Source of the DNA: a virus
Taxonomy: Duplodnaviria > Heunggongvirae > Uroviricota > Caudoviricetes
Length of the DNA: 15,128 nt
Direction: 5' to 3' (one strand)
Virus record (IMG/VR): IMGVR_UViG_2663762996_000003
Coordinates: 1 to 15,128 of that record
The notes under the pieces: model-generated
What the model was told of the DNA's origin: nothing
The model's database searches: none
What the model saw: only the letters and a program-made list of their open reading frames with translations
Translations under genes and position numbers: made by a program
Shown here: piece by piece, positions 2,965 through 4,387 of the stretch
Position numbering within the stretch: the stretch's first letter is position 1
Layout: every line of letters begins with the position of its first letter

Positions 2965-3147
2965 ATGATCATGCTGATTCTCGCGCCTCTGGTGGGCGTG
3001 CTGGGTGCGCTTTTGCTGGCGTATGGTGCCTGGCTGATTTATCCCCCGGCGGGTTTTGTTGTTGCCGGGGCGCTGTGCCTGTTCTGGTCGTGGCTGGTGG
3101 CGCGATATCTCGACCGTACACGGCAGTCTGTCGGCGGAGGTAAATAG
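2965..3147 (+). CDS. Small hydrophobic (2-TM) membrane protein, function unknown
   Basis: 60 aa with two hydrophobic stretches. GAGG precedes ATG 2965, and its stop TAG (3145-3147) overlaps the GTG 3147 proposed as the portal start. Confidence 0.45.
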
Positions 3148-4387
3148 TGTTCTTTTCGGGATTATTTCAACGAAAAAGCGATGTGCCGGTGACCACGCCA
3201 GCAGAACTGCTGATGCTATCGGGCTGTCATACGACACCTATACCGGAAAGCGGATCAGTAGCCAGCGGGCCATGCGCCTGACGGCGGTCTATTCTTGCGT
3301 CAGGGTGCTGGCAGAGTCTGTTGGTATGCTGCCCTGCAGTCTCTACAAAATCAGCGGTACCCTGAAAACACGGGCGGTGGATGAACGACTGCATAAGTTG
3401 GTTTCGGCAAAACCTAATGGCTACATGACACCGCAGGAATTCTGGGAGCTGGTTATTGTCTGCCTGTGTCTACGGGGGAATTTTTACGCCTACAAGGTAA
3501 AGGCACTGGGAGAAGTGGTGGAGCTTCTTCCGATAGATCCGGGCTGTGTGGAACCGAAGCTGAACAGCCAGTGGCAGCCGGTTTATCAGGTGACGTTTCC
3601 GGATGGTTCCGTGGATGTGTTGACCCAGAATGAAATCTGGCATGTGCGCACCCTGACGCTGGATGGACTTGTCGGGCTGAATCCCATTGCGTATGCGCGT
3701 GAGGCCATTTCACTGGCAGCGGCAACCGAGGAGCACGGTGCCAGGTTGTTTAGTAATGGTGCGGTGACATCCGGTGTGTTGCGTACGGAACAAAAGCTCA
3801 CGCCGGATGCTTACGAGCGTCTGAAGAAAGATTTTGAGGAGTGTCACACGGGGCTTGGCAATGCTCACCGCCCGATGATTCTGGAAATGGGGCTGGACTG
3901 GAAGTCGATGGCGCTGAACGCCGAGGACAGTCAGTTCCTGGAAACCCGCAAGTTTCAGCTGGAAGAAATCTGTCGTCTGTTCCGGGTGCCGTTGCACATG
4001 GTGCAGAACACCGATCGCGCCACCTTCAACAATATCGAAGAGCTGGGGCTGGGATTTATCAACTATTCACTGGTGCCGTATCTGACCCGCATCGAACAGC
4101 GGATCAACACCGGACTGGTACGAAAAAGTAAGCAGGGCGTTTATTACGCCAAATTTAACGCCGGGGCGTTACTGCGCGGGGATATGAAGTCCCGTTTTGA
4201 AGCCTACGCCACCGGGATCAACTGGGGAATTTACTCTCCCAATGACTGCCGCGACCTGGAAGATATGAATCCGCGTCCCGGTGGGGATGTCTATCTCACA
4301 CCGATGAACATGACCACGAAACCATCCGATGGCAGTAAAGCCGGTAAGCAGAAGGATAACGCCAATGCAGACGAAACAACGTCTTGA
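3147..4387 (+). CDS. Portal protein, HK97 family; apparently frameshifted near 3221-3224 (frame 0 start, remainder in frame 2)
   Basis: The frame-2 body (RAMRLTAVYSCVRVLAESVGMLPCSLY... to stop 4387) looks portal-like. A perfect GGAGG (3135-3139) sits 7 nt before GTG 3147, and the frame-0 translation from there ([26 protein letters not shown]) is protein-like but stops at 3279-3281. One extra G in the GGG run at 3221-3223 would join the two frames. The ORF-track start at 3056 ([15 protein letters not shown]) overlaps the membrane ORF and reads like an off-frame product. Confidence 0.8.

Follow-up and report, generated by a model that had tools for sequence, protein, structure and literature searches.

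The DNA analysed here, a single stretch of 15,128 nt (the window), holds the late region of a temperate phage that is HK97-like and belongs to the phiP27/ST64B/SfI group; its genes and landmarks are collected in Table 1. The partnership of an HNH endonuclease with the terminase is usual in HK97-like cos phages. The portal gene, the subject of this study, stands where its family is normally found, with the large terminase on one side and the prohead protease and capsid genes on the other, and the order TerL, 60-residue membrane protein, portal, HK97 protease, capsid is the same in phiP27 (an Stx2e phage, whose portal protein is L38, NP_543090.1) and in E. coli prophages. Over the segment 2900-3600, which spans the start of the portal gene, DNA identity is 96% to phiP27 and 85-87% to ST64B, SfI, SfII and SfIV. 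Further downstream the tail chaperone genes carry a canonical -1 frameshift site (10826-10852). The first ORF ends there in GTT AAA AAA AAG TAG, and from the A-run onward the -1 frame stays open as far as 11142, shortly before the tape measure gene.

Table 1. Features of the window, in window coordinates (nt)
Feature	Position	Strand	Remarks
Rz fragment			left of the HNH gene in the gene order
HNH endonuclease	257-607		intact; directly precedes the P27-family small terminase
P27-family small terminase	729-1223
Large terminase	1220-2953
YmfR-like 60-aa membrane-protein gene	2965-3147	+	last base of the TAG stop (3145-3147) is the first of the portal GTG
Shine-Dalgarno GGAGG	3136-3140	+	6 nt 5' of the portal start; motif also precedes the homologues' start codons
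Truncated portal frame	3147-3281	+	codons 1-21 native, then 23 out-of-frame residues; TGA 3279-3281
1-nt deletion site	3208-3210	+	T-G-C here vs T-G-G-C in intact alleles; one G lost, codon 22 of 413
Rest of portal	3209-4387	+	392 codons, residues 22-413; -1 frame, no stop before the natural one; carries the Pfam Phage_portal domain
In-frame ATG, residue 43	3272-3274	+	gene callers' start for a 371-aa remnant; 5 nt before the frame-0 TGA 3279-3281
IS4 target in siblings	4275-4286	+	GTCCCGGTGGTG there vs GTCCCGGTGGGG here; no IS at this point
S78 prohead protease			after the portal
IS4 copy	4661-6038	+	about 50 nt of left end missing, internal-hairpin loop inverted; transposase 4697-6025
Second portal 3' end and protease 5' end	6039-6424	+	99.2% identical to 4275-4660; begins GTCCCGGTGGTG
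Major capsid protein	6794-7999
Head-tail connectors, major tail protein, tail chaperones, tape measure			right of the capsid gene
Tail chaperone genes	10454-10840 and 10852-11142
Tape measure	11182-14427

The start of the portal gene can be read from the sequence, in which GTG 3147 and the TAG stop of the 60-residue gene have one G in common. The coupling of this GTG, behind a GGAGG motif, to the upstream gene had been proposed in the initial annotation and holds; the portals of phiP27 and E. coli A36 are annotated from the same GTG as intact proteins of 413 residues; the GTG overlapping the upstream stop is likewise found in phiP27 and in the RefSeq E. coli 'phage portal protein'. Counterparts of the 60-residue gene in phiP27 and E. 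coli are annotated 'membrane protein' or 'protein YmfR', and an identical protein occurs in 5102 indexed blocks of the searched collection. From GTG 3147 the frame-0 ORF runs for only 44 codons, and residues 1-21 of its product agree with the portal N-termini of the homologues. It stops at 3279-3281, as had been noted earlier, and the remainder of the portal does lie in the -1 frame, open through 4387. The window therefore has no uninterrupted full-length portal frame: a 1-nt deletion at 3209 divides the gene into 3147-3281 and 3209-4387, and it is by this missing G at codon 22 that the gene differs from the intact 413-residue portals of phiP27 and the E. coli prophages.

The site of the lesion is not the one first suggested. 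The initial annotation placed an indel in the GGG at 3221-3223, and so described a G-run or homopolymer lesion. Alignment with intact portal genes supports the loss of a single base and moves it to 3209, where the gap falls in GAACT-GCTGATG (window) against GAGCTGGCGGAGG. CTGGCT has lost one G here, from a GG dinucleotide and not a homopolymer run; the site lies 12-14 nt upstream of the GGG, which is the same in intact genes (ATC GGG CTG, encoding I G L). The closest intact allele, in the IMG/VR contig L006, reads GAACTGGCTGATGCT where the window reads GAACTGCTGATGCT, i.e. it has the same local variants plus the extra base, and its portal frame remains open. Repair at 3209 gives the peptide AELADAIGLSYD (in longer form PAELADAIGLSYDTYTGK), which matches L006, L012, L015 and L081 exactly; the repaired peptide proposed earlier, AELLMLSGLSYD, was incorrect.

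That the frame-0 peptide is the true N-terminus of the portal is evident from its homologues. A scan covering one genome per species found 75 loci, 39 of them translated in full, in genera including Edwardsiella, Shigella, Serratia, Klebsiella, Citrobacter, Yersinia, Proteus, Xenorhabdus, Photorhabdus and Morganella. In all 39 of these genus-diverse loci the portal is a single ORF of 406-413 residues that starts at the same GTG or at an ATG, and the scanned proteins open with M/V-FF-x-G-[LM]-F, a Shine-Dalgarno motif preceding the start codon; eight further contigs have a 413-residue portal abutting the 60-residue gene. The homologues' N-termini all match the frame-0 peptide, and not the other frame upstream of 3224.

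The repaired protein is a clear member of its family, scoring 361.3 bits against Pfam PF04860 (Phage_portal; cut-off 39.1) over residues 47-373, and aligns with the HK97 portal 8CEZ over residues 27-385 (E 4.5e-53). The HK97 gp3 portal (PDB 8CEZ/8FQL), although homologous and of the same Pfam family, is a distant relative, and is used here only to judge whether the lost residues fall within the ordered part of the protein. In the published HK97 model residues 32-398 are ordered, and residue 32 aligns with about residue 18 here. Residues 1-42 are conserved across Enterobacterales, with a mean majority fraction of 0.76 compared to 0.87 for the core. Compared with the portal of phiP27, the repaired portal has 95% protein identity and a dN/dS of 0.085. 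A dN/dS of about 0.08 against intact relatives means that the rest of the gene still looks selected, and so points to an evolutionarily recent inactivation; to judge by its sequence, the repaired portal gene was functional until recently.

The deletion is not peculiar to the window. It is present in identical form in five IMG/VR contigs from different source genomes (L007-L011), in L005, an independent Logan assembly of ERR987424 made by a different pipeline, and in ten out of ten chromosome-scale records retrieved with the identical 60-residue upstream protein (L088-L097). This amounts to 16 other assemblies, among them the closed Shigella sonnei chromosomes CP032523 (strain AR-0030, genotype 2.1), CP022672 (strain 866, genotype 3.1.1) and CP022457 (strain 2015C-3566, genotype 3.7), for which the strain and genotype names are as given in PMC10924462 and PMC6128377. 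At least three haplotypes carry the allele, namely the window, the S. sonnei type (T1905, T1918, T4238) and ERR987424, which lacks IS4 and departs from the window at 3931 and 3961. The window itself probably comes from S. sonnei or from something very closely related to it. The occurrence of the deletion in the five IMG/VR contigs, the Logan assembly and all ten chromosome-scale records indicates that it is genuine and vertically inherited. An exact-pattern scan of species-representative genome contigs gave no match to the local allele, either with or without the extra base. In a set of 5426 complete E. coli genomes, which excludes Shigella, segment 2900-3600 has matches in 1385, the best at 96.2%, and the allele is absent, none reaching 99% over the segment.

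Two side observations concern these assemblies. In the Logan assembly the frameshifted portal runs without IS4 into the protease and capsid genes, which places the mutant portal in a second mosaic context; its positions 1532-3038 are 97% identical to window 6039-7545, with 44 differences, all from 6701 onward. In three of the chromosome-scale records (L093, L095 and L096) gene calling split the large terminase in two or began it only at residue ~80 (locus positions ~1257-1529 and 1493-2989), which may reflect extra lesions, long-read indel errors or gene-caller differences; the DNA of L096 shows no gapless difference from that of L088, in which the large terminase is called whole.

The sibling prophages have decayed further. 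In S. sonnei and the IMG/VR siblings a full-length IS4 follows GTCCCGGTGGTG within the portal gene, near codon 380, and the insertion in this 3' end is flanked by a 12-bp target duplication of the same sequence. Beyond IS4, three closed genomes continue with chromosomal DNA, in which genes are called as ribosomal S30AE-family or BamE. A search with the exact protease protein for the partner half of the prophage in S. sonnei gave intact relatives only. In L011, the one sibling contig checked upstream, the left arm of the prophage is absent and IS2 is in its place: positions 1-6200 carry chromosomal ypjCB, a truncated ypjA autotransporter and IS2, and then directly a phage DnaB-like helicase gene. 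RusA, Q and lysis genes follow, and the integrase and immunity arm is missing. As ERR987424 has the frameshift without IS4, the frameshift probably preceded the IS4 insertion. The paper on S. sonnei 866 describes phiP27-like prophage remnants laden with IS elements. The element in these siblings is a remnant, and the portal thus has the marks of a pseudogene in a decaying prophage: a disrupted ORF, an allele common across strains, and further lesions in the form of IS4 and, in L011, IS2. Decay of Shigella prophages through point indels and IS insertions is well documented.

The IS4 copy of the window itself is anomalous. Here the portal passes the IS4 target, reading GGTGGGGATG instead of GGTGGTG followed by IS4, and the sequence continues for 376 nt into the protease gene before entering IS4 abruptly at about 4661-4665, some 50 nt from the IS4 left end. 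Within the element the 8-nt loop of a hairpin is inverted (AAGTGAGC instead of GCTCACTT), and beyond the right end, at 6038, the portal 3' end and the protease begin again from GTCCCGGTGGTG. IS4 is thereby flanked by a 386-bp direct repeat (4275-4660 and 6039-6424) with three mismatches, none of which, by inspection, changes an amino acid in the portal frame. Scans of viral contigs matched neither the right junction (IS4 followed by GTCCCGGTGGTGATG) nor the odd left junction. The first 386-bp copy probably derives from a real paralogue; the left IS4 junction (IS4 region 4285-6038) suggests an artefact of assembly or gap closing, or perhaps a local rearrangement, and the IS4 region of this contig should be flagged as unreliable. 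The two parts of the contig differ in affinity. E. coli N51 and JNEC-KY174 have an intact prophage with 100% identity to the right-hand 9 kb (6039-15128). The left part (1-4284) is at most ~93% identical over its length in complete E. coli genomes, and shares 99.93% with the remnant in S. sonnei. Either the prophage is a mosaic or the contig is chimeric.

We consider it very likely that the frameshift is a genuine, inherited single-base deletion and that the portal is an ordinary pseudogene in a decaying HK97-like prophage of the phiP27/ST64B/SfI type. Translation from the normal, coupled GTG 3147 would then yield 21 native and 23 nonsense residues and end at the TGA at 3279-3281, no full-length portal would be produced, and packaging-competent proheads, which require the dodecameric portal, would not be built. 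The mutation would have arisen in an ancestor and been passed on vertically, becoming fixed in S. sonnei across the three genotypes examined (2.1, 3.1.1 and 3.7). There the gene is also split by IS4 near codon 380, and in L011 the left arm is replaced by IS2, so that the allele would be a single step in the decay of a defective prophage. The most likely consequence, as predicted from the gene sequence, is loss of portal function. Of the two explanations offered by the initial annotation, this leaves the genuine inactivating mutation, given the 16 other assemblies and the closed genomes among them, and not the homopolymer sequencing error. Its prediction of a prophage unable to package is reasonable and, if anything, understated, as the siblings add IS4 and L011 also IS2.

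The alternative with most in its favour, though we think it unlikely, is that ribosomes terminating at the TGA at 3279-3281 reinitiate at ATG 3272 to make a 371-residue portal which lacks residues 1-42 and keeps some function. The geometry would suit termination-reinitiation, the ATG standing 5 nt before the stop (ATGCGCCTGA), it is the start chosen by gene callers, and the product would keep the Pfam Phage_portal domain (residues 47-373). However, no Shine-Dalgarno motif precedes 3272, and the residues that would be lost are those conserved across Enterobacterales, which from about residue 18 onward align with the ordered HK97 portal model. The S. sonnei gene, moreover, is interrupted by IS4 as well and no longer adjoins the head genes, and shows no sign of selection for function. 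A related and very improbable reading is that the split portal, i.e. the 44-residue N-terminal peptide together with the portal lacking residues 1-42, is tolerated or even exploited, for example as a component of defective particles or of interference; were this true, it would explain why the remaining ORF is clean in the window and in ERR987424.

Equally improbable is a sequencing or assembly error such as a homopolymer miscall. The window does make up the whole of a draft short contig (CXFI01000117.1, assembly GCA_001259355.1), the IS4 region of which looks misassembled, but the deletion affects a GG dinucleotide and recurs in the other assemblies, closed genomes and the product of a different pipeline included; it is thus neither confined to one assembly nor placed in an error-prone homopolymer. 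Finally, the full-length portal might be restored by transcriptional slippage or by a programmed -1 ribosomal frameshift, the latter rightly dismissed in the initial annotation. This reading has a negligible probability: the downstream frame is indeed -1 and open across the whole overlap, but 3147-3281 contains no frame-0 X XXY YYZ heptamer and its longest runs (T4, A5) are far from the junction, the downstream RNA folds no better than shuffled sequence (MFE -33.8 vs a shuffle mean of -33.6 kcal/mol, z = -0.06) and has no Rfam match, and the two-frame layout occurs in no homologue, the 39 diverse loci and the annotated relatives all being single-ORF, in contrast to the real -1 site of this window in the tail chaperone genes (A AAA AAG, ~10829-10835).

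The inherited portal pseudogene is a feature of an entirely known kind. Its closest analogue is ST64B, a phage of the same family with ~87% DNA identity to the window in the head region, and in which, too, one frameshift in a virion gene is inherited across strains. The two differ in that the ST64B lesion affects a tail assembly gene and not the portal, and in that siblings of the present prophage carry further, irreversible lesions (IS4, IS2). A 2004 title by Figueroa-Bossi and Bossi reportedly has ST64B resuscitated in coculture. In Salmonella Typhimurium, according to two papers, the inherited frameshift lies in the tail gene SB21 and renders ST64B non-infectious (PMC7067206, PMC3853940). 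The e14-type remnant of E. coli also has a portal fragment beside a ymfR-like gene, but there the 3' part is deleted, so that L081 and L082 match residues 1-135 only, and there is no 1-nt frameshift. This truncated portal next to ymfR is presumably beeE; our literature search for beeE and e14 found no relevant paper.

The significance of the finding beyond annotation is little. The gene should be annotated as a pseudogene that starts at GTG 3147 and is frameshifted at 3209, and not as a protein of 371 or 443 residues. For the prophage, the order of decay is documented, the frameshift probably coming before IS4. Every S. sonnei genome examined has the allele, which could be used as a marker of the lineage.
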